NCBI GenBank assembly: GCA_963663225.1
Contig: OY760142.1
Coordinates: 1,508,509 to 1,572,508, forward strand
Length of the DNA: 64,000 nt
Source of the DNA: Nitrospirota bacterium
Lineage (GTDB): Bacteria; Nitrospirota; UBA9217
Direction: 5' to 3'
Position 1 is the first letter of the stretch; every line of letters starts with the position of its first letter. The notes beneath the pieces are model-generated. The model was not told the DNA's origin. It did no database searches and saw nothing but the letters and a program-made list of their open reading frames with translations. Below are positions 9,893 through 41,318 of this stretch, piece after piece. Both the position numbers and the translations under genes were made by a program.

Positions 9893-10450
9893 CTAGCGTT
9901 GGGGAGATTTTTTTCGGTTCATGGCTTTGCCGAGGTATTTGTTGACAGGGTTTGAACGGTCAAGAAAAGATACAATCGGTTTTTTTCTTGCACCGAGGCT
10001 TCTGAGTTCTTTCTTGATCGCTGTATGGAGAGGATCATAATGGAGTCCCTGGTAGAAAGCAGCAACCGCATTCTTTTTTTTGCCTGCAGCCACGTAGGCC
10101 TTCCCAAGGTTGAGGTAGAGGACCGGGAACAGCAGCTCTTTGCCGACCACACCGGCATTTTTCTGCACCATTGAAATGGCTTTGGTGCAATTGTCCACCC
10201 CGCTTCTATGTTTCTTGTCGACGCTGGCCTGCAGGCTGCCATAGAATGAAATGACGAACGGATCATCCGGACACATTACCATGGCACGCTGTATAACAGC
10301 ATATGCACTTTTCTTGTTCCCTTTCAGGAGGTAGCCGTTTACCGTCCGGATGTATTCAATCGGTTTTAGCTCCCGAACTCGTTCATTCGGATCGTCTCCT
10401 GCAGCGTCTTTTGTCCGTTTCGGTTCAGGTAAGTCATCCATGATTTGCAT
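9893..10450 (-). CDS. TPR-repeat protein
   Basis: TPR-like helices (YLNLGKAYVAAGKKKNAVAAFYQGLHYDPLH). Start set at internal Met with GGAG RBS. Confidence 0.45.
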   Translation of the reverse strand: MQIMDDLPEPKRTKDAAGDDPNERVRELKPIEYIRTVNGYLLKGNKKSAYAVIQRAMVMCPDDPFVISFYGSLQASVDKKHRSGVDNCTKAISMVQKNAGVVGKELLFPVLYLNLGKAYVAAGKKKNAVAAFYQGLHYDPLHTAIKKELRSLGARKKPIVSFLDRSNPVNKYLGKAMNRKKSPQR

Positions 10451-24676: not shown

Positions 24677-25651
24677 TTACAGCATTTCTTCAAGACTGAT
24701 GGTCCTGGTTGTGGTGATGTTCCTGAGCTTCTTGAGCGCCTGCTCCTGGATTTGCCTTACCCGTTCCCGGGTAATTTTGAGGGCTTTACCGATGCTGTCC
24801 AGGGTCCGTGGTTTTTCGCCGTCCAGTCCAAACCGCAATTCAATGACTTCCCGTTCAATATCGCGAAGTTCTGCAAGCCACTCATCGATATGTTTCCGTT
24901 TGCGGATTTCATCCGAGGCTTCCATGGGAGAAAAAGCTTTTTCATCCTCAAGAACGCTTTGAAGTGTGTCCTCCTCGTGATCCCCGATCAGCATATCCAG
25001 AGAATACGTTTCGCGGAGCACTTGAGACAGGCTTCGCACTTTATCGATGCTGATGTTCATTTTTTTTGCAATTTCATCCAGGCCGGGTTCACGGCCAAGT
25101 TCCTGCGTCAGGGAGCGCACTGTCGCAGAATATGAGTGTACCATGCCCGCGACATGCACCGGAAGACGAATGATCCGGGCTTGATTTACAATAGCCCGTT
25201 CGATTGCCTGTCTGATCCACCAAACGGCATACGTGCTGAATTTCAAACCGCGCTGATACTGAAACTTTTCGACCGCCCTGATAAGGCCGAGATTGCCCTC
25301 TTCCAGAATGTCGGCAAAGGGCAGCCCCCGGTTGATATATTTTTTGCCGACGGCAACCACGAGCCGAAGGTTTGATTCGATCATGGCCTTACGGGCCCGG
25401 TCATCTCCCTCGGCAATTCTTTTTCCCAAGGTCTGCTCTTCCGCAAATGTGAGAAGAGGAAAGCTTCTGATGTCTTTGAGGTAGTATTTAACTGCATCCA
25501 GGTCCTTTGCAGGGGTCCGGCCGCGTTCCTTAATCTGATCGAACTTGCTGCCTGAATCTTCGCGCGCTATTTCCATTCTCTCGTCAAGTTGAAGATCAGG
25601 TTCAAGAAAATCCGACACTGACAACTCAGGTTCCATAGTCATTGTGCTCAT
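24677..25651 (-). CDS. group-2 sigma-70 family RNA polymerase sigma factor (RpoS/RpoD-like)
   Basis: Regions 2-4 are present ([37 protein letters not shown], and [28 protein letters not shown]). Size of about 325 aa suits RpoS-like. GGAG RBS. Confidence 0.8.
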
Positions 25652-26046
25652 TATTGTCTCCTCGTTCTTCGTTTGGAAATGCATAAAAATGCAACGTATT
25701 GTTTTTGTTTATGGTACAGGATGGTTCTGTAATTTGTTGCGGGCAATACGCTACTCTATGCAAACAGGAGGCCAAGACAAAAAATAATAAAGGATTAAAT
25801 AAATCAGTATGTTAACGAGTAAAAAGTTATAAAAAAATGCGGACCCATTCAAAATGACCTATCTATTTTGTGGTAGCATTCATTTTCAACAGTCTTTAAC
25901 AAAAATTTTTTCGCTGCATCATAAATAATGAGAGGAAATGATATCTGCATAAAATGACGCGGAGGTAATTGATGGCAAGCAGGAAGCTGTAATGGGAAGC
26001 GTTGCGTGACAGAAAGGAATTACAAATAGTGCAGCGTGGTTGTCTG

Positions 26047-26892
26047 TTACTGTGTGACGAGAATATTATCAATCAATCTTGTACGTCCCAGCCGGACTGC
26101 GACCAGTATGGCCATTCTCGGTGTGGTAGTGGAGAGCGGAGCAAGGGTCTCCGGATCGACAATTGCGATGTAGTCAATGCTGAATTTTTCTTCTTGCGTC
26201 AGTATGCGGTGCATTTCAAGCCGAATTTTCTCCGGTTCATTCATGCCTGACTTCACCAATTGTTCAGCAGCAGAAAGAGCTTTAAAAATCGTTGCTGCAA
26301 CCTGGCGCTCTCCGGTATTTAAGTACGTATTGCGGGAACTCATTGCAAGGCCATCCGTCTCGCGAATGGTAGGCTGAACGCATATTTTGACATCCATGTT
26401 CAGCTCCTGTACCATATGTTTAATCACCATGCACTGCTGGTAATCTTTTTGGCCGAAAAAAGCAGCATGGGGTTTGACAATATTGAAGAGTTTCGCCACC
26501 ACCGTTGCGACACCGCGATAATGACCCGGCCTTATGGCACCTTCCAGTATGTCGGATATGCCGTCCACCGTAACGAAAACAAAAGGTTTTTTCGGATACA
26601 TTTCCTGTGGATCGGGCATAAAGAGAAAATCAACTCCGGCTGTTTTGCACTTTAAGCAGTCTCCTTCATGATCCCGCGGATAACGGTCGAGGTCTTCCGT
26701 GGGCCCGAATTGAGTCGGATTGACAAAAATACTGGCACAGACGATATCAGATTCCTGTCGAGCCTGCCGCATGAGAGAAAGATGGCCCTCGTGCAAAAAA
26801 CCCATGGTGGGGACAAAACCGATTCTTTGCCCCTGTTTTCTGGCGGAATCTGCCAGCGACTGCATTTCAGATAGGTGAGTAATTATGCGCAT
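26047..26892 (-). CDS. panC: pantoate--beta-alanine ligase
   Basis: VPTMGFLHEGHLSLMRQAR with HIGH-like motif; the full sequence is PanC-like. Confidence 0.9.
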   Translation of the reverse strand: MRIITHLSEMQSLADSARKQGQRIGFVPTMGFLHEGHLSLMRQARQESDIVCASIFVNPTQFGPTEDLDRYPRDHEGDCLKCKTAGVDFLFMPDPQEMYPKKPFVFVTVDGISDILEGAIRPGHYRGVATVVAKLFNIVKPHAAFFGQKDYQQCMVIKHMVQELNMDVKICVQPTIRETDGLAMSSRNTYLNTGERQVAATIFKALSAAEQLVKSGMNEPEKIRLEMHRILTQEEKFSIDYIAIVDPETLAPLSTTTPRMAILVAVRLGRTRLIDNILVTQ

Positions 26893-29408: not shown

Positions 29409-29665
29409 GTAGGGAATCCAGTGTTTTATTTCTATCAGCACAAGTGAATAGAATTTCTCCCCAGCCACGGCAAGTTGAGTTCTGCCGCCAAACGAGCGAG
29501 TTTAAGATTGAGGAGGAATACATCTATCATAAGTTGATATTAAGGCAACGCATGACTGGTGTCAAGAAAAATATGCCTTCATCGGAGCAAAAATCATAAA
29601 GCGAGTTGTCGCACGTCCGAAAAAAAGCAATCCTGTGCATGCAACGAAAATGCATCCGTACTCAA

Positions 29666-30289
29666 TCATTGAACCTGAGGAAGCAGTTTTTGGACGTCAT
29701 GAAAAAGCTTTGCTGTAAAGCCTGCTTTGCTTGCCGGAAAGGGGACGAGACAGGTCAATGTGCCGCCGGACAGCAGGGAGTACCCGAGAAAGATAGAAGC
29801 CATGTCCTCATGAATATATTCGGCAACATGGCTTGGGATATCAGAGCGCTGAGAATTATGGCTTATGATTTTTTCACGAGACAACTCATCTATAAACCGT
29901 TCTGCAAATGAATAACAAGGTCCGTACCCGTGAAACTCCAGATCAGCAGTAACAACATAAGTCAAGAAGGTCCATGGCAGAGTGGCAGCCGATTCTACTC
30001 GTTCAGTAAATTTCCCCAGGCGTAATTCAGAAAGCAGCAGCTTGCCGATTGCCTTGATTTCGCTGCAAGTATTTCGCGTGGACAGGAGGAGGTCCAGCGC
30101 TTTGACGGGCTGTGCTTCTAATCCGTGATCTGCAATACAGTCTTTGATTTTTTGGATTTCGATGGTGTCGAAACCGTTCGCTTCCCGCTGGTTTACCGCA
30201 TCCATCGCCTGGTATGCATCAAGATAAAAGTTGATATTTCTGGCAGGAATATGTCCTGCCAATTCGAGTAAATATTGCCCGGAGTTCAT
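29666..30289 (-). CDS. hypothetical protein
   Basis: ORF of about 207 aa at moderate GC. No recognisable family by eye. Start uncertain. Confidence 0.4.
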   Translation of the reverse strand: MNSGQYLLELAGHIPARNINFYLDAYQAMDAVNQREANGFDTIEIQKIKDCIADHGLEAQPVKALDLLLSTRNTCSEIKAIGKLLLSELRLGKFTERVESAATLPWTFLTYVVTADLEFHGYGPCYSFAERFIDELSREKIISHNSQRSDIPSHVAEYIHEDMASIFLGYSLLSGGTLTCLVPFPASKAGFTAKLFHDVQKLLPQVQ

Positions 30290-30952
30290 AATTTTTACCA
30301 ATCTGTGCAAATAACGAAGCTGCCGTAGCTTGCCTGTTCAGTGCAGGAAAAGTTTGAAATTGATCATCCGTTATGATCGAGATTGCGAGATACTCCGGAA
30401 TCAGTTATATAGCAGTTGTTTCTCTAGAGATGAAGGGAGCTCACATGATAAATGAATTTTCTAATCTTACAAGGAGGAGTTTTTTCTGTCAAGAAGTTTA
30501 AGCATAGATTGACACACTGCCTGCTCAAAGTAGCAGCATATTGCATTAGTATGTAAATAATTTCAAATTATAACATTATGCAATACTGGCAAATTGGTTT
30601 TTAGGTGAATACTGATTTAAAAAAACTGTCAGATATTCAGGGAGAAACCCGCCAGTGAATACATAAAACTGCGAGTCATTCTTTCAAGTTATATTATCAA
30701 TAATTTTCTTCCTGTCTTCCACACTTATCATGGCTGAGGAGTTTTAGTAATCGTTACACAGTAAATCTTAAATTCATTAATGTAATATTATGCAATCTTC
30801 TGTAGACAAAAAATTTCAATGTAAATATAAACTTTGGCTTGCAACTTTTTTTACGCTGTGCTAGTTTTCATAGAGGTATACTTATATGCAAAGTTATAGT
30901 AAATTGATAAAACAGTACACGCTTATTCAATTCAATTATTTGGAGGAGAGAA

Positions 30953-33049
30953 ATGTTGGGATCATTCATAATGAATTTTGTGTATGTATTGATTATTGCT
31001 GCAGGCATCGTTCTGATCTGGCAGGCAATTATTGTCGTTCGCGGGATAGAAATTGCTGTTGTTGAGCGCAGGCTTTTCGGTAAGAAGATGGAGCCCGGCA
31101 GGGTCGTCGCATTGTCGAATGAAGTAGGCATTCAGGCCAGAACGCTCGGCCCAGGTCTCCACTTCTTGATACCCTTTCTTTATAAAGCAAAAAAATATCC
31201 GTTTACTATAATAGCGGATAATGAGGTTGGTATTATAGAATCCATTGATGGCGACCCGATTCTACCCGGCAAAATATTCGCGAAGGTAGTGAGTGGCCAT
31301 AATTCCTTTCAGGACGGTGAAACGTTTATGAAAAATGGCGGGCAGAAAGGCCCCCAAATAGAAATTTTGCCGCCAGGTAACTATCGTATCAACACGGTTC
31401 TTTTTAAAACAATAAAACAGCCAGCTGTTGTGATTAACCGTGGAAAGATTGGTCTTGTTACTTCCATGGATGGTACCCCTATTTCACCTGGACGTCTTCT
31501 GGCAAAAAAAGTAAATGGCCACTCGAACTTTGAAGATGGACAGGCCTTTTTGAACAACGGCGGGCAGAAAGGCCCCCAAATCGAAATCCTTTTGCCGGGG
31601 ACTTACCGCATTAATACGGACCTTTTTCGTATTGAAATACAGGATGCAACAGTTATTCCCGCCAATAAGATTGGATTGGTCACTGCACTTGATGGGCAGC
31701 CGTTGCCGGAAGAAGAATATGTGGCTAAATCCGTTTCCGGACATAACGATTTTCAGGATGCATCAACATTCCTGGCGGCCGGCGGGGAACGCGGTCCTCA
31801 GTTTGATGTGCTGAAACCCGGAACCTATTATATCAATCCGCTGATATTCAAGGTTGAGCTGGATGATGTGGCAGTTGTAGAACGCGGTCAGGTTGCGGTA
31901 GTTGTATCAAATGTGGGAGAAGAACCGGTCCAGATTAGAAGCCTCATTGAACAGACCGCAAAGAAGGAAAACGTCTCAACTGGAAGCGATTCATATAAAG
32001 AAATAGAAAACCGTTTCAATGTAGGGATAGAGCGATACGTTGTGCCAAAAGGATTCCGCGGCATCCAGCAGGAAGTGGCTGGTCCGGGCATCTATTACCT
32101 CAATAGACGCGCTTATATCGTTTATGTCGTCGATACGACCAACATAACTATAGACTGGGACGACTCAAAGGACACTCGCTTCGATCCGCTTAAAGTTATT
32201 TCCCGGGATGGGTTTGAAATCAGCGTATCTGTGAAGGTCGTGATACGAGTAAGGCCGGACCAGGCACCGTATATGGTCGCGAAGATCGGGTCCATAGAAA
32301 ACCTGGTTCTTCATGTTATTCACCCAATGATAGATTCCAGTTTCCGGAACCAGGCTTCGTCCACGTCAGCCATGAATTTCATGCAGGACCGGCAGGATGA
32401 GCAGCGCAAAGCAGAAGACCGGGCGCGAGCGGAACTTGAACGATATCACGTAGAGTGCGTTTCTGTGCTGATTTGCCAGATCAATCTCCCACAGGAGCTG
32501 ATGGATACACAGACGAAGAAGATAATCGCTCAGCAACAACAGGCAATGTATCAGGACCAGCAAAAGGCAGAGCAGGCCAGAATTGCGATGGAAAAAACCC
32601 GCGCAGAGGCTGAACAGCAGACAAATCTTGTGGAAGCTGAAATCGGCGTAAAAATTTCCGAGCAGAATAAAATGAAGGCAATCAGGATCGCCGAAGGAGA
32701 TGCTGAAAGCATTAGATTACGTGCGGAAGGTCAGGCGAAGGGAATTAAGGCTACCGGTGAAGCCGAGGGAGCAAAAATTCTCGCCATGGGCCAAGCCACT
32801 GCCAAGGCGTACGAGCTTCAAAACAAAGCTGTCGGACAGCAAGGGGTCACTGCTATTGAAATTGCGAAGCAAATTTCCGCGGGTAATGTAAAAGTCACTC
32901 CCGATTTTCTGATCCAAGGCGACGGCAATTTGGGAGGACTTCTTTCTGCCTTTCTGACGGGGAAAATTTCTAGCATGTCCAAGCAAGCACTTCCACAACC
33001 AGCGAAAAGCGGGGATAAAGTTGCTTCAGATGAGCCAATGGATAGTTGA
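30953..33049 (+). CDS. flotillin/SPFH (band-7) family membrane protein carrying three internal 74-aa repeats
   Basis: N-terminal TM, SPFH-like core, and a C-terminal Glu/Ala-rich coiled coil (AEQARIAMEKTRAEAEQQ...AEGQAKGIKATGEAEGAKILA) typical of flotillins. GAGGAGAG RBS. Confidence 0.7.
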   Translation: MLGSFIMNFVYVLIIAAGIVLIWQAIIVVRGIEIAVVERRLFGKKMEPGRVVALSNEVGIQARTLGPGLHFLIPFLYKAKKYPFTIIADNEVGIIESIDGDPILPGKIFAKVVSGHNSFQDGETFMKNGGQKGPQIEILPPGNYRINTVLFKTIKQPAVVINRGKIGLVTSMDGTPISPGRLLAKKVNGHSNFEDGQAFLNNGGQKGPQIEILLPGTYRINTDLFRIEIQDATVIPANKIGLVTALDGQPLPEEEYVAKSVSGHNDFQDASTFLAAGGERGPQFDVLKPGTYYINPLIFKVELDDVAVVERGQVAVVVSNVGEEPVQIRSLIEQTAKKENVSTGSDSYKEIENRFNVGIERYVVPKGFRGIQQEVAGPGIYYLNRRAYIVYVVDTTNITIDWDDSKDTRFDPLKVISRDGFEISVSVKVVIRVRPDQAPYMVAKIGSIENLVLHVIHPMIDSSFRNQASSTSAMNFMQDRQDEQRKAEDRARAELERYHVECVSVLICQINLPQELMDTQTKKIIAQQQQAMYQDQQKAEQARIAMEKTRAEAEQQTNLVEAEIGVKISEQNKMKAIRIAEGDAESIRLRAEGQAKGIKATGEAEGAKILAMGQATAKAYELQNKAVGQQGVTAIEIAKQISAGNVKVTPDFLIQGDGNLGGLLSAFLTGKISSMSKQALPQPAKSGDKVASDEPMDS
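31214..31882 (+). repeat. three in-frame tandem repeats (period about 222 bp / 74 aa) within the flotillin-like gene
   Basis: GHNSFQDGETF...GGQKGPQIEILPPGNYRINTVLF, GHSNFEDGQAF...GGQKGPQIEILLPGTYRINTDLF and GHNDFQDASTF...GGERGPQFDVLKPGTYYINPLIF. The copies are diverged, not identical. Confidence 0.7.
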
Positions 33050-33419
33050 TCAGAGATTGGATGGTTTGGGCTAAGCCGAATATGTCGTGCAGACGCTGAG
33101 GATGCATGATATGCATGTTTCTATCGTAAATAGAATATATATCATCCTGTTGCATAGAAGACGAAACATGTTTGATCTTAAGTAAAAACATGAGCTGTTT
33201 TTCATTATTTTACGATTCAGTGGAATTAGAGATGCGCGAGGATATTAGGGAGAATAGATAGCAAATAAACTTTAGCGATAAATTAAGTAATGAAAACTTC
33301 CTGTTTTATACAAATATTAAGACCAAGTGGCAAATATAGTTATCGAACAGCATCCTATAAAGCTAGAAATTATCATTTCAATAGTAAGTCAATTCAAAAA
33401 GAGAGGAGAGACCATAGGT

Positions 33420-33815
33420 ATGAACGATCAACAGATTGAAGTAAAAAAATCACTTCGTGCCAATAAAAAACTTTTTACACAATTGTTTGGTATCGGTATT
33501 ATCTGTTTATTTATTTTGCATTACGTTTATGGATTTATCCAAACTCCTGATAAGCTATTAGAAAATGCCATTCAACGCGGCATGTCGGCAACCTCTGTAA
33601 AAGCTGGCTATGCTTTTGGTATATTTTGTATATTTGCGTTGCCAATTCCCATGGCGGTTTCTTTTTTATCGTTATTAATAAAATCAAAAAGAACCCTATC
33701 ATCATTCATAAAGATATTATTTTACAGTCTCGTTCTTACGTTCATAGCAAGCATAGTGGTTGGGCTTGTATGTGTACCACGAGCCGTACAGCAGATCAAT
33801 TTTAATACTTTATAA
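33420..33815 (+). CDS. small hypothetical membrane protein (about 3 TM) in the low-GC island
   Basis: GAGAGGAGAG RBS before ATG. Hydrophobic helices. Very AT-rich codons. Confidence 0.35.
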   Translation: MNDQQIEVKKSLRANKKLFTQLFGIGIICLFILHYVYGFIQTPDKLLENAIQRGMSATSVKAGYAFGIFCIFALPIPMAVSFLSLLIKSKRTLSSFIKILFYSLVLTFIASIVVGLVCVPRAVQQINFNTL

Positions 33816-34048
33816 AAGCTTTTCGTTTGTTAGTAGCATGTATCAATTTCTTTCTGTATTCGCGAGTTACAAGATTTTGGCTATTGTGTAATTTTTCATA
33901 TAGAGGATTATGCAATGCACTTCGGGAGAGCAATTTTCTAAATAAATTGCGAGTTGCTTATGGTCTTTTTATCGAATAATCAATTCCTTATGAATAGGCA
34001 ACTTTAAGAGCTTTCCAGTAATGTGAGTGAAAGGTTCTTGTTATTGCT

Positions 34049-34555
34049 ATGGTAAAGAATAATGAATTAATTATAGTTGGCACGAAATCAAAGGTTGTTT
34101 TTTTTATTGTAAACTACCCGTTGTTAGTCATGATAATTATTGTTGGTTCTTTTGAGGTATTTGCTTTCTTTTATGGAGAAGATGTTACTCACATGCTCAG
34201 AGGTTTGATGTTGTTGCCTGCCGTTCTTTTGCCACAAGTCATGCTACTTTATATATTATCAAATAAGTGGTGCTATAAAATAGAAATAGATAAAACAAAT
34301 AATACTATAAATTTTTATCGTATATGCAATAGGGCCATGCGTACCTTTTTGACGAAAAAGATGAAAGTAGCTATTGGTGCTTATTGCCATATATATATTA
34401 ATAATGCTGATTTCATTTTGCCTGAAGCATATATACATGAGTTAGTATCGTATTTACCAAAAGATACTGTTGTTGAATACAAAGGTGCTCTTGGAAAATC
34501 CAAGAAAAAGTATTGGATTAAAATTAATAAGCCACTCATCCCTGACAGACGATAA
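34049..34555 (+). CDS. small hypothetical membrane protein (2 TM plus a possible bacterial PH-like domain) in the low-GC island
   Basis: N-terminal hydrophobic hairpin followed by a basic soluble domain. No family recognised. Confidence 0.3.
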   Translation: MVKNNELIIVGTKSKVVFFIVNYPLLVMIIIVGSFEVFAFFYGEDVTHMLRGLMLLPAVLLPQVMLLYILSNKWCYKIEIDKTNNTINFYRICNRAMRTFLTKKMKVAIGAYCHIYINNADFILPEAYIHELVSYLPKDTVVEYKGALGKSKKKYWIKINKPLIPDRR

Positions 34556-35019
34556 AAGCTGCACTTAAGTTAATGTCATTTTCTTCATTTAGCGGTTATA
34601 CAAGTTATAAACTGTATCCTGCATAGGATTTTTGCAAAAGCTGATGCAAAAAAGTAGGTACATCATTGATATCTGTTTAAATTAGGACATTAATGGTCAG
34701 GTTGAAGTATTGACCATACTGATTGTTCCTGTTAGAGGTGAAGGAAGAAACGAAAGAATCGGAACAGTGGCAGCTTTAGAGGAGAATATAGGGCCGATTT
34801 CATGCAGAATGGACGACTGTACGCTTCGTAATATTGTGGTTAAATCAATTCGTTGTCTGTCGCCGCAGCTATACAAGCAGGCTCAAGAGTTATTTTTAAT
34901 AAATCCTCAAAGGTATTGCGCAGTACTCATTCTTTCAAGCACAGGGTGACGTAGTTAAATAAATCGGCTTGCGATTAGGATTTGAGCAGCCAGCTTGAGT
35001 TTAGAATGAAAGACATTCA

Positions 35020-35928
35020 TCAAGGTGGGCATTTTGCGCATACCGAGGCAAATAACGATGTGCTGAGATAACGGTCGCCCCGATCAGGGAGGATGACAAC
35101 AACGACACCTGTTTTCATCTCTTGTATTTTTTGGAGAGCGCCTTGCACGGCGGCGCCGCTGCTCATACCCACAAACAGACCTTCTTCGACTGCTAGCCGG
35201 CGTGTAATGGTAAATGCGCTGTCATCATCCACGGTTCTGATCTCATCCAGTAAACTCGGATTGTAAATTTTGGGCACTATGGCTTCTGACATGTTCTTGA
35301 GCCCTTGTATCTTATGGCCGACGGTTGGTTCCATGCCGACAATGGTGATTGACCGGTTGTATTCCTTGAGCCTGCGGCTGCAGCCCATAAGGGTGCCGGT
35401 TGTGCCCATGCCCGCAACAAGGACGCTTATCGTGCCGTCTGTTTGAGTATAAATTTCTTTTCCGGTGGTTTCATAATGTGCGGCTATATTAGCCGGATTG
35501 TCAAACTGGTTCGGCATGAAATAAGCATCCGGATTTTCATTGTACAGTTTATGGGCGAGACGGATTGCGCCATCTGTTGCCTCCGCCCCGGGGCTGAGCA
35601 CCAGTTCAGCGCCAAACGCTTCCAGAATTTTTCTTCGCTCCAGACTGACGCACCCCGGCATCACGAGCTTGACTTTATAGCCTCTGGCGGCGCCTACCAT
35701 GGCGAGGCCGATTCCCGTGTTTCCGGATGTCGCTTCGAGAATAGTGGATCCTTTTTTAAGTCGCCCTTCCTGTTCCGCGATCTTTATCATGAACCAGGCA
35801 ACGCGGTCCTTTATTGATCCGCCGGGGTTGCTCCCCTCAAGTTTGGCGAGGAGCGCAACGTGCGGATTGGGGTTGATTTTATCCAGTTTCACCAGCGGTG
35901 TATTGCCGATGGAATCGAGTATGCTCAT
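35020..35928 (-). CDS. cysK: cysteine synthase (PLP-dependent, CysK/CysM family)
   Basis: PLP-lysine motif (NPGGSIKDR), TSGNTG, and GTGGT glycine loop. The internal Met was chosen as start. Confidence 0.8.
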   Translation of the reverse strand: MSILDSIGNTPLVKLDKINPNPHVALLAKLEGSNPGGSIKDRVAWFMIKIAEQEGRLKKGSTILEATSGNTGIGLAMVGAARGYKVKLVMPGCVSLERRKILEAFGAELVLSPGAEATDGAIRLAHKLYNENPDAYFMPNQFDNPANIAAHYETTGKEIYTQTDGTISVLVAGMGTTGTLMGCSRRLKEYNRSITIVGMEPTVGHKIQGLKNMSEAIVPKIYNPSLLDEIRTVDDDSAFTITRRLAVEEGLFVGMSSGAAVQGALQKIQEMKTGVVVVILPDRGDRYLSTSLFASVCAKCPP

Positions 35929-36191
35929 GTGCGGTATTCTCCCGGTGTTGTATAAATTTGAGCACTGAGTATAATAAATTCTTTGACGATACGCAACCTC
36001 AATGTGACTCCGTGCATTTGCCGGCAAATGGCAAGACCATACCATCGCGCCTATATGCTCCGCACACCGCAGGGGTTCCCTAAAACCGGATATTTCTATC
36101 GGGGGTTGACAAGGCAAACAAAATATCTTGTTTTTTTATTTTGTTTATACTATATTTTTTGTGCAGATCGTCTGTCGGGAGAAAAACAACC

Positions 36192-37493
36192 ATGAAACAG
36201 TATTTTGAGTTTGCCAAATACAATACCAGTTATCGGCAGGAAACGCTGGCGGGGATTACGACTTTTCTTACCATGGCTTACATTATCATCGTCAACCCGG
36301 CGATTCTCGAAGTAGCCGGAATGCCAAAAGGGCCGTCCATGACCGCAACAATCCTGTCTGCAGCATTTGGAACACTGATCATGGGTTTCTACGCAAAACG
36401 ACCTTTTGCCATCGCTCCCTACATGGGCGAGAATGCCTTCATAGTTTTCACCGTCGTAAAGGTGCTCGGCTATTCCTGGCAGACTGCGCTCGGCGCGATT
36501 TTCATAGCCGGAGTTTTGTTTACCATACTCACGCTGCTGAAAGTGCGGGGATGGATGGCGGATACTCTTCCGCAATCGCTTAAATACAGTTTTGCCGTCG
36601 GAATAGGCCTTTTTCTCGCATTCGTTGGGTTGAATGAAACAAGGATCGTATCTCTTGGCGTACCGGACGCTCCTGTCAGCCTTGGCGCGGTTTCACAGCC
36701 GCCCGTGTTGCTGGCGATTTTCGGTTTTTTCCTCATCGTTTGGCTTATGATGAAAAGGATACATGGCGCGATCATCATCGGTATTATTGCGATAACCGTG
36801 ATCTCATTTTTCGCGGGAATAACGAGTGTACCGCATTCGTGGATTGGTTTGCCGCCTGATCCGACCCCTCTTTTCGGCCAGTTGGATATCGCGGGAGCAC
36901 TGACGATCAAAAATCTGCCGGTTGTTCTTATTATTTTTGTCATGGCATTCGTTGACACGGTGGGGACGCTGATCGGCCTGTCTGCGCGCGGCAATTTGCT
37001 GGATGAAAACGGCAATCTGCCGCAGATTGAAAAGCCGATGCTCGCCGATGCGCTGGCGAACCTTATCAGCCCGCTGCTCGGCACAACTACATCGGGTGCT
37101 TACATAGAATCGGCGGCTGGAATTGAGGAGGGAGGTCACACGGGTTTTGTGGCCCTGGTGGTCGTTGGACTGTTTCTGTTCGCGTTGTTTTTCGCTCCGA
37201 TTCTGACTGTGGTTCCACCCCATGCGTACGGTGCTGCGCTCATTGTGATCGGTTTGTTAATGATCAGTCCTATTACAAAAATTGATTTCAGCGATTACAC
37301 TGAATTTATACCGGCCTTTCTCACGATAATCCTGATGGTCTTCACGTTTAACATAGGCGTTGGCTTGACGGCCGGATTGCTGGCGTATCCCGTTCTCAAA
37401 GTGCTCTCCGGCCGGTACCGGGAAGTCCCCGCAGGGATGTGGCTCTTTGCCGCATTGTCGCTGATATTTTACATCGTCTATCCCTACAAGTAG
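36192..37493 (+). CDS. NCS2-family purine permease (AzgA-like adenine/guanine/hypoxanthine transporter)
   Basis: YRQETLAGITTFLTMAYIIIVNPAIL N-terminal signature. Polytopic, about 433 aa. Confidence 0.75.
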   Translation: MKQYFEFAKYNTSYRQETLAGITTFLTMAYIIIVNPAILEVAGMPKGPSMTATILSAAFGTLIMGFYAKRPFAIAPYMGENAFIVFTVVKVLGYSWQTALGAIFIAGVLFTILTLLKVRGWMADTLPQSLKYSFAVGIGLFLAFVGLNETRIVSLGVPDAPVSLGAVSQPPVLLAIFGFFLIVWLMMKRIHGAIIIGIIAITVISFFAGITSVPHSWIGLPPDPTPLFGQLDIAGALTIKNLPVVLIIFVMAFVDTVGTLIGLSARGNLLDENGNLPQIEKPMLADALANLISPLLGTTTSGAYIESAAGIEEGGHTGFVALVVVGLFLFALFFAPILTVVPPHAYGAALIVIGLLMISPITKIDFSDYTEFIPAFLTIILMVFTFNIGVGLTAGLLAYPVLKVLSGRYREVPAGMWLFAALSLIFYIVYPYK

Positions 37494-39905: not shown

Positions 39906-40874
39906 ATGGCGACAAAGACCGGCAAGAAAACATTCCAGAATACTGCGCACGCGGTTGCTTTATTTATAATATGTGCGGCAATAATCACGATCGGGAGCAT
40001 GTCGGTTACAGCGCAACCAACGCAGCAGGTATTCTCGTCTCCGGAGGATGCATTGAAAGAATTGGCAGCGGCAGTTAAAACGAAAGACAAAACCGCGCTT
40101 GCCCGCATATTCGGGCCGTCCGGAGAAGAACTGCGCGCTACTGACGCGGTGCAGGCTGCCGCTGAATTCGAAGAATTTTCGAAATTATTGACGATGAAGG
40201 CAAGCTTGGTTAAAGAGAATGAGTCGAAAGTGGTCCTTTATATAGGAAATGAAAACTGGCCGTTTCCAATCCCGCTGATTAAAACGAACAATCAGTGGGT
40301 TTTTGATACAGAAGCAGGGAAAGAAGAAATTTTGAACCGCAGAATTGGCGAGAACGAGCTGACGGCCATCCTGGTTTGCCGTTCCTATGTAAAAGCCCAG
40401 CGTGAGTACGTACTGAAAGACTGGGATGGTGATGGAATTTTGGCGTACGCACAGAAGCTCCGGAGCGATCCGAACAAAAAGAACGGCCTCTTCTGGAAAC
40501 GGGTTCCGGGCGAACCGGTAAGCCCTCTTGGTGAACTCGTGGCGCAGGCCCGGATGGAGGGATACCGGAAGGAAAAGTCGTTATTTAAAGAAGAGCCGGT
40601 GCCTTTTCACGGCTATTACTTTAACATCCTCACGAAACAGGGCAAACGCGCACCGGGAGGGAAATATAGTTACATTGTAAATGGAAATATGGTCGGGGGA
40701 TTTGCTCTTGTTGCCTTTCCGGCGGACTGGGGCAAATCGGGAGTAATGACTTTTATTGTGAATCAACAAGGCAAGGTGTACCAGAAAAATCTCGGAGAAG
40801 AAACTCTGAAGATGGCCTCGAAAATGAAGATATACGATCCTGACGAGACATGGGCACTCGTTAAGGGCCAATAA
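39906..40874 (+). CDS. secreted DUF2950-family protein
   Basis: Signal anchor. GGFALVAFPADWGKSGVMTFIVNQQGKVYQKNLG motif typical of DUF2950. DUF3300 and DUF2950 proteins commonly sit side by side. Confidence 0.55.
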   Translation: MATKTGKKTFQNTAHAVALFIICAAIITIGSMSVTAQPTQQVFSSPEDALKELAAAVKTKDKTALARIFGPSGEELRATDAVQAAAEFEEFSKLLTMKASLVKENESKVVLYIGNENWPFPIPLIKTNNQWVFDTEAGKEEILNRRIGENELTAILVCRSYVKAQREYVLKDWDGDGILAYAQKLRSDPNKKNGLFWKRVPGEPVSPLGELVAQARMEGYRKEKSLFKEEPVPFHGYYFNILTKQGKRAPGGKYSYIVNGNMVGGFALVAFPADWGKSGVMTFIVNQQGKVYQKNLGEETLKMASKMKIYDPDETWALVKGQ

Positions 40875-41157
40875 TTTTTTGAACTCTGTTTTGTCCGAAC
40901 AGGGTTTTTCGAAATAAAGATTGGTTTAGCTGGAGTTTTCCGCAAGAAAGACCTAAAGGGGTCTGCGTTTATAAAACTACCGCAAATTCTGAACTCGTTC
41001 AATATCAACATGCTCGAAACCTATCGCCGGTAGTTGTTCGCATCTTTTCCCTCACGTTTTCCCCCCTATTACAGCAAAGATCGTATTTACTATTTAATTT
41101 AGCGGTTTAGAATATTATTGACATTATAATTTCCCTTTGCTACCTTATACCTAAGCA

Positions 41158-41180
41158 GTATGTGCGCTTGACGCACATAC
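41158..41180. promoter_or_regulatory. perfect 9-bp inverted repeat (GTATGTGCG-N5-CGCACATAC), a candidate operator
   Basis: About 90 bp upstream of the cytochrome promoter -35. Read directly from the sequence. Confidence 0.3.
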
Positions 41181-41270
41181 AAAACTAAACAGCTCTTATT
41201 AATTCAAAATCCAACGTCAATTTAAGAATAAAACTCATACTGCCAATTGATTAAAAAGTTCCGAGCTTCT

Positions 41271-41299
41271 TTGACAGGTGGCCTTTAAGAAGCTACAAT
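41271..41299 (+). promoter_or_regulatory. sigma70-type promoter: TTGACA-N17-TACAAT
   Basis: Consensus -35 (41271-41276) and near-consensus -10 (41294-41299) with a 17-nt spacer. AAAGGAGG RBS and ATG follow at 41319. Confidence 0.55.
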
Positions 41300-41318
41300 T
41301 TCCCCTAAAGGAGGTATT

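Follow-up and report, generated by a model that had tools for sequence, protein, structure and literature searches.

A likely strain-specific islet of mosaic origin beside cysK in a Nitrospirota chromosome

Introduction

The locus considered here raises the question of whether an AT-rich dip beside a cysteine synthase gene (cysK) is DNA acquired from elsewhere and, if it is, which part of it arrived, by what route and with which genes. The dip lies in a 64,000-nucleotide (nt) stretch of a Nitrospirota bacterium (assembly GCA_963663225.1, contig OY760142.1, positions 1,508,509 to 1,572,508 of the forward strand), referred to below as the window; coordinates given without a locus name are positions in it. 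An earlier note on this DNA had marked positions 30311–35019 as a low-GC island holding a flotillin-like gene, here called the SPFH gene after the superfamily of its product, and two small membrane open reading frames (ORFs). We find it likely that the core of this region is a strain-specific islet of about 4.25–4.42 kb, mosaic in origin, set into the spacer between cysK and a gene for 207 or 214 amino acids (aa) in an otherwise syntenic chromosome. The islet is real but fairly ordinary, and its horizontal acquisition is supported. Its interest lies in being a clean natural example of DNA without mobility genes that would be spreading in a species complex by recombination in its flanks.

Occupied and empty sites in close relatives

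Contigs of close relatives were reached through the 90%-identity protein clusters of the window's CysK and permease. They represent five independent assemblies: a metagenome-assembled genome from NCBI (L003), two Logan contigs (L004 and L006) and two JGI contigs (L005 and L007). All five show the gene order permease, cysK, 207-aa gene, leuA, without the SPFH gene. In blastn alignments L007 is 97.3% identical up to window position 35020 and resumes at 30585 at 97.0%, and L003–L006 are 93–94% identical up to 35016 and resume at 30591. Between these junctions, which were read directly, 169–179 bp in the relatives stand against 4,424 bp in the window. None of the close relatives sampled has this 4.4-kb accessory segment; the pattern looked for in a genomic island, presence here and absence at the same site in close relatives, was found with all five. 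The two lineages of relatives have spacers that share homology, and the empty site is for this reason taken to be the older state.

The earlier note had proposed horizontally acquired accessory DNA, a proposal that relatives carrying the same genes at the same GC would have contradicted. The segment is missing from the relatives' five assemblies (94–97% nucleotide identity), and the proposal stands. The boundary does not: the note had begun the island at 30311, the actual left edge is at about 30592, 280 bp away, and 30311–30591 matches the relatives at about 94–95% (93–94.5% over 30300–30499). At the left junction the motif TAAyATTATGCAAT (30571–30584) occurs again at 30783–30796, 212 bp inside the insert, a pair that may be microhomology or chance. 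The features of the region are listed in Table 1.

Table 1. Features of the insert and of the DNA adjoining it.
Feature	Coordinates	Strand	Remarks
Native AT-rich intergenic DNA, outside the insert	30311–30591		Upstream of minus-strand gene 29666–30310; aligns to L003–L007
Window-specific segment	30592–35015		4,424 bp; replaces the spacer of about 170 bp of the closest relatives (blastn, five relatives)
Insert-specific AT-rich leader of the SPFH gene	30592–30952	+	GC about 31–33%; ribosome-binding site (RBS) GGAGGAGAG before ATG at 30953
Direct repeat of 13 nt, left copy	30676–30688	+	TCATTCTTTCAAG
SPFH gene	30953–33049	+	698-aa membrane-anchored SPFH/Band 7 protein
Cassette-like block	33298–33856	+	89.5–90% DNA identity to cargo of a tRNA-Met integrase island (L092–L095)
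131-aa ORF	33420–33815	+	Three transmembrane (TM) segments; RBS GAGAGGAGAG; inside the cassette-like block
168-aa ORF	34049–34555	+	Two TM segments; C-terminal domain of some 100 aa; probable orphan immunity gene
79-aa ORF	34710–34949	+	TTG start; no family match, no TM segment
Direct repeat of 13 nt, right copy	34927–34939	+	TCATTCTTTCAAG; start-to-start spacing 4,251 bp
cysK	35020–36199	-	Native gene with an excess of window-specific substitutions; adjoins the insert

Composition of the region

The AT-rich dip is genuine, with 39.8% GC over 30311–35019 versus 49.6% for the whole window. The earlier note had set it against a background of about 56%, which is too high, the flanks measuring 49.9% and 51.0%. 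It had also treated the dip as one continuous block; there are two AT-rich blocks, 30311–30952 (32.9% GC) and 33050–35019 (34.0%), and between them the SPFH gene is host-like at 47.3%.

Genes were compared with a reference set of 35 long ORFs in the window (GC 51.3 ± 2.8%; GC at third codon positions, GC3, 55.7 ± 4.5%). The SPFH gene departs little from this set (z of -1.4 for GC, -1.8 for GC3 and -1.1 for codon adaptation), and the native neighbour at 29666–30310 has a GC z of -1.8, so the SPFH gene is no more atypical than native DNA next to it. Strongly atypical GC was found in the 131-aa ORF (z -6.4), the 168-aa ORF (z -7.3) and the 79-aa ORF (z -3.3), and the two former have a GC3 of about 29%, versus 56% in the reference set. 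Tested for the composition and codon usage of a genomic island, therefore, the two small ORFs stand out (z -6 to -7) and the SPFH gene does not (z -1.4), and composition serves as an argument for acquisition in the two AT-rich blocks but not in the SPFH gene. Further short AT-rich dips at 25551–26101 and 40751–41301 (about 38% GC) align to the relatives and are native intergenic DNA, so AT-rich spacers are normal for this genome.

The ORFs were present at the coordinates that the earlier note had given, the two small ones with three and two predicted TM segments. Of the strong RBSs assigned to both, the first was found and the second was not, the 168-aa ORF having a weak GAAAGG about 14 nt upstream. 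Taken alone, the GC dip misplaced an edge by 280 bp and merged three components that differ in origin. It was the comparison with near-identical relatives that resolved the junctions to the base and brought out both the candidate target repeat and the proposed footprint of recombination.

Route of arrival

Integrase, tRNA and obvious direct repeats had all been reported absent around the island. The first two absences hold, with no tRNA or tmRNA in the 64-kb window and no homolog there of the integrases and transposases tested, but the 13-nt direct repeat TCATTCTTTCAAG lies near both ends, its copies about 85 and 76 bp inside the insert edges. A shared 13-mer was obtained in 3/2000 shuffles of the insert's first and last 200 nt, and the relatives' spacer has one related AGTC(A/G)TTTCAG near its middle. 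The repeat may be an att core or a duplicated target, in the latter case with flanks that have diverged strongly. No terminal inverted repeats were found at the insert and its DNA had no match in plasmid and phage collections. Out of the integrase, tRNA target and flanking att repeats that mark a typical genomic island, just the 13-nt direct repeat was seen.

A second trace was found in the native DNA on either side. A substitution was counted as window-specific when the window departs from a base common to L007, L003 and L004. Over 35000–36199, which covers cysK, there are 33, 14 and 16 such substitutions per 400 bp compared with a background of about 4, in total 63 in 1,180 bp where 12 were expected (Poisson p = 3e-25). 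The left flank (30400–30591) has 8 in 186 bp (Poisson p = 7e-4). The excess in cysK is mostly synonymous: the window and L007 differ by 45 synonymous and 12 non-synonymous codon changes, and L007 and L003 by 21 and 11. Judged from these substitution patterns, the tract suggests the footprint of homologous recombination that imported cysK DNA from a more divergent relative carrying the insert.

A history in two steps would accommodate both traces. A sister lineage of greater divergence would first have received the segment, inserted at the short site TCATTCTTTCAAG that is now present twice; from there it would have entered the present lineage by homologous recombination, which would have replaced about 1.2 kb of cysK and 0.2–0.6 kb on the other side. 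The islet resembles classical tRNA-linked islands in its presence and absence among relatives, its partly atypical composition and the short direct repeat near its ends, and it differs from them in being just 4.4 kb long (thus 'islet'), in a window without integrase or tRNA. Its arrival is better explained by homologous recombination in the flanks than as that of a classical tRNA-linked island.

The 168-aa gene and Rhs toxins

The two AT-rich small ORFs are real membrane-protein genes, and neither gave a meaningful match in PADLOC, NCBIfam or PHROGs. The 168-aa protein has seven homologs at 47–73% identity, with 39 invariant columns among the eight members, and shows DNA homology with locus L088 across 34020–34542 (79.6%). 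The family is rare (35 clusters among 1.84 billion representatives); it has no match in Pfam, NCBIfam and the PADLOC immunity models and no relatives in viral contigs.

Gene order suggests a function. In L091 and L096 a metagenomic Rhs/YD protein (L091 3521–7588; L096 101–2136) is followed on the same strand, after a gap of about 52–56 bp, by a gene of the 168-aa family. As in known Rhs/YD pairs, the core of the large protein ends in DPxG and is followed by a variable C-terminal domain, and the family gene stands directly downstream of that domain. Both C-terminal domains are rich in glycine zippers, and over 265 aa they share 44% identity. Because a gene directly after a Rhs gene, as in these two loci, is the gene-order signature of toxin and immunity protein, L091 and L096 look like an undescribed Rhs toxin–immunity pair, and the window's 168-aa gene is probably an orphan immunity gene against Rhs contact toxins. 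It would be an orphan since, in contrast to Rhs/YD pairs, there is no Rhs gene within the 64 kb. In L088 and L089 a family member lies two genes after another, different Rhs C-terminus. The 168-aa protein would thus be an inner-membrane immunity protein directed against a membrane-targeting Rhs toxin from neighbouring cells, acting with no cognate toxin gene nearby. A rare, unannotated family with two TM segments is in this way nominated as immunity to glycine-zipper Rhs toxins.

Orphan immunity genes, acquired interbacterial defence (AID) clusters and recombinase-associated arrays have been described (10.1101/471110; PMC12247911), and loci of the orphan-immunity or AID type (10.1101/471110) are the closest known analogue of the tail of the islet. 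As there, an immunity-type gene stands without its cognate toxin on acquired AT-rich DNA, and relatives of the gene occur in L092, within an array of small genes associated with an integrase, and elsewhere beside cognate toxins (L091, L096). Unlike those clusters, the window has one or two such genes and no adjacent recombinase, the host is not one of the Bacteroidales, the partner toxin is of the Rhs type and the protection is predicted.

The 131-aa gene and the tRNA-Met island

The 131-aa gene lies in a block whose similarity to other loci ends sharply on both sides (90% identity to L094 and L095, 89.5% to L092 and L093). Just two clusters of homologs of the protein were found, at 88–90% identity, in both cases with a tyrosine integrase and an HTH_17 gene next to them at tRNA-Met (L094 4330–4406). 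In L092 the 32-nt 3' end of the tRNA is repeated at 8–39 and 10042–10073, which delimits an integrative island of about 10 kb. The cargo of this island includes a 157-aa member of the 168-aa family. By their sequences, then, relatives of both small genes are cargo of the tRNA-Met integrase island, and they come from the same habitats, the samples with the island loci also holding close relatives of the window. The 131-aa protein would accordingly be classed as a possible accessory membrane protein of the same mobile gene pool.

We also considered, and rejected, an integron cassette reading of the L092 array: no recurrent attC-like repeat was found in L092 or the window. L092 and L094 are taken as an integrative island and not an integron because an integrase is paired with HTH_17 at tRNA-Met with att repeats.

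Compared with the window, the other 131-aa alleles carry 9–13 synonymous and 14–16 non-synonymous codon differences, and all three alleles keep an intact frame of 131 codons. Pairwise among the window, L092 (2641–3036) and L094 (6113–6508), the non-synonymous to synonymous counts are 14:13, 16:9 and 18:7. The pattern fits either fast diversification or early decay.

The SPFH gene

The 698-aa protein is, by its sequence, a member of the SPFH superfamily. It matches Band_7 (PF01145) with 90.6 bits versus a cut-off of 23.6 (E 1.6e-25), the SPFH domain spanning about aa 370–540, and Band_7 was matched by all 41 aligned homologs. No Pfam family besides Band_7 was found in it, and no solved structure was matched by sequence at E <= 0.01. 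A hydrophobic N-terminal TM helix (aa 1–25) precedes three beta-rich repeats of about 75 aa (aa 88–163, 164–238 and 239–312), whose invariant positions are G..DG, GH..F, GPQ and L.PG.Y.N..F and of which some homologs have four or five; a long helix occupies aa 514–626. As in the rest of the superfamily, the protein would oligomerise through the SPFH domain and the long C-terminal helix into a scaffold or cage attached to the membrane.

Homologs of the protein are widespread (4,549 matches). The best are 77–89% identical and come from at least 8 phyla, the proteins in this range belonging to Ignavibacteriota, Bacteroidota, Syntrophales, Acidobacteriota, Nitrospirota, Spirochaetota and others, and the GC of the homologs tracks that of their hosts from 39% to 67% (loci L008–L087). 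Conservation of this kind is unusually strong for a gene gained or lost at the level of the strain. Among 5.8 billion proteins no homolog exceeded 89% identity, and since that collection includes the relatives' contigs, the relatives appear to lack the SPFH gene altogether.

The nearest homologs, at 88–89% protein and 76–79% DNA identity, stand in unrelated contexts and have no flank in common with the window; the flanks of the two nearest (L001 and L097) shared nothing with the window's leader or tail. No conserved neighbour of the SPFH gene was found in 82 loci, the largest neighbour family being present in 12 loci and the window in none, and no motif is common to the leader and the upstream regions of 77 homologs. 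A low-GC tail after the SPFH gene is missing in most other loci. In L001 (12204–14529) the nearest homolog (88%) is followed by low-GC genes (41–44% versus 54%), whose products are two proteins with MORN repeats and one of 169 aa that resembles a beta-barrel; the window's tail has no homolog of any of them. Megaplasmids of Ralstonia, Rhizobium and Streptomyces (H1–H10) carry full-length relatives of the same architecture at 28–34% identity, and another such relative (H11) lies at LR756502.1 343811–345655, in a 642-kb uncultured phage genome.

A patchy, island-like distribution of SPFH genes has been described before (PMC13086221). The prokaryotic flotillin/YqiK type forms the SPFH2 class (Hinderhofer et al. 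2009, PMC2636767), and JGI annotates the homologs found here as 'uncharacterized membrane protein YqiK'; such uncharacterised YqiK-annotated SPFH proteins (PMC2636767) are the closest known analogue of the main gene. What sets the window protein apart from flotillin and YqiK is its beta-rich repeats of about 75 aa, three here and four or five in some homologs, which stand after the first strands and ahead of the body of the SPFH domain. Nor was the operon with an NfeD-like partner that is typical of flotillins of this class (YuaG with YuaF, YqiK with YqiJ) found in the 82 loci or among the ORFs of the window.

The repeats invite comparison with the major vault protein (MVP). Membership of that family found no support by sequence, as the Pfam, repeat-profile and hhalign tests all failed: no Vault or MVP_shoulder match was seen among 41 members at E <= 1, the repeat profile found nothing in PDB, and hhalign against human MVP (a query checked to be identical to PDB 11dr_A) was not significant (E 0.053, probability 1%). 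Unlike MVP, the window protein has a membrane anchor, and its structure model is of low confidence (predicted local distance difference test, pLDDT, 53). The bacterial MVP homologs described earlier (10.1101/872010) are a different set, detectable by sequence. For the SPFH protein 'vault-like' is a lead only. A bolder reading, which we regard as doubtful, would make the SPFH family widespread membrane-anchored, vault-like cages, with the variable number of 75-aa beta repeats, an SPFH 'shoulder' and a long cap-like helix homologous in architecture to eukaryotic MVP, traded horizontally as a single-gene unit, and the 168-aa family a new glycine-zipper Rhs immunity family. If this were true, the 77–89% identity across phyla together with presence and absence at strain level would mean that a cage is exchanged horizontally as a single gene. 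As an uncharacterised SPFH subfamily that is extremely conserved and carries vault-like repeats, it is flagged as a candidate for structural work.

Weighing the alternatives

Several points weigh against the account of a mosaic islet brought in by flank recombination and carrying an immunity gene. No donor was found, the best SPFH match being 79% in DNA and in an unrelated context, and no homolog of the tested integrases or transposases was seen in or near the insert. Chance alone may account for the 13-nt repeat. The outer 90 bp or so of the insert resembles the relatives' spacer on the left only and for L007 only (weakly, z 4.1 from 30592 to the left repeat copy, versus z 0.6 for L003), the right outer stretch giving no resemblance signal. 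The divergent cysK tract could come from a separate recombination event, and the host-like GC of the SPFH gene would also fit a donor of similar composition and an arrival at another time than that of the tail. For the small genes, the non-synonymous to synonymous ratio of the 131-aa gene is high and is also consistent with decay. The immunity role is based on gene order in two or three loci only, a family member in L090 has no Rhs gene nearby, neither a Rhs nor a type VI secretion system gene was seen in the 64-kb window, and the structure model of the 168-aa protein (pLDDT 47) was unusable and kept out of the fold search.

The alternative that fares best, although we judge it unlikely, is that the three genes form one membrane-protection module, in which the SPFH scaffold stabilises the small proteins, as in SPFH–NfeD pairs, and confers tolerance of toxins or envelope stress. 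Three membrane proteins on one strand do share an insert bounded by the same 13-nt repeat, the glycine-zipper-rich partner toxin of the 168-aa family suggests action at the membrane, and the SPFH5 protein YqfA has been reported to give resistance to toxic peptides (PMC2636767). Against it, none of the neighbours in the 82 loci resembles the window's small ORFs, and loci with homologs of the small genes lack an SPFH gene. The genes are separated by gaps of 370 and 233 bp, no NfeD signature is present, and a GC of 47% versus 31–34% points to separate origins. The membrane-microdomain or envelope-stress module suggested by the earlier note thus finds no support as a coherent unit, and in the mosaic islet the SPFH protein would probably be an independent passenger and not a partner of the small genes.

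It is quite improbable that the relatives lost by deletion an ancestral segment whose AT-richness reflects intergenic DNA and the bias of membrane proteins. The host-like GC and codon usage of the SPFH gene, the normality of AT-rich intergenic dips in this genome and the lack of mobility genes all speak for it. Against these, a homologous spacer of about 170 bp in two lineages (94% and 97%) would require a deletion that was either ancient or made twice identically. The GC3 of the small ORFs is too far from that of the reference set for amino-acid bias, their only relatives are cargo of an integrase island and of Rhs loci, and the cysK tract looks imported. The least credit goes to a locus of defence against phages or to the remnant of a phage or plasmid: megaplasmids and the 642-kb phage genome carry distant SPFH homologs of equal length, PHROG phrog_200 matches the SPFH part, and the AT-richness of the small, variable genes recalls defence islands, but PADLOC models matched none of the five ORFs, phage and plasmid collections gave no DNA match, the 168-aa family has no viral relative, and there are no phage structural or replication genes.

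Other searches and observations

The 79-aa ORF is probably not a gene; no relatives of it were found in a metagenome scan. Rfam gave nothing in 29500–36200 at E <= 1, nor in the whole window at gathering thresholds, and promoter and terminator matches showed no excess over the shuffled expectation. When the spacers 30592–30952, 33050–33300, 33857–34048 and 34556–35015 were compared by tblastx with all fetched loci, no match was obtained. The stretches left over between the matched parts of the insert, 33050–33297, 33857–34019 and 34556–34926, likewise resembled none of these loci.

The tRNA-Met island loci (L092 1–10885; L094 4330–7842) contain about ten small ORFs, including one DUF6794 and one HEAT-like, and several have N-termini resembling signal peptides. 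A 50-nt direct repeat in L092 (7262–7311 and 7959–8008, 84% identical), not found in the window or other loci, flanks the 157-aa gene and suggests a cassette-like insertion. L092 and L094 also differ by an indel of about 940 bp that carries a 231-aa gene.

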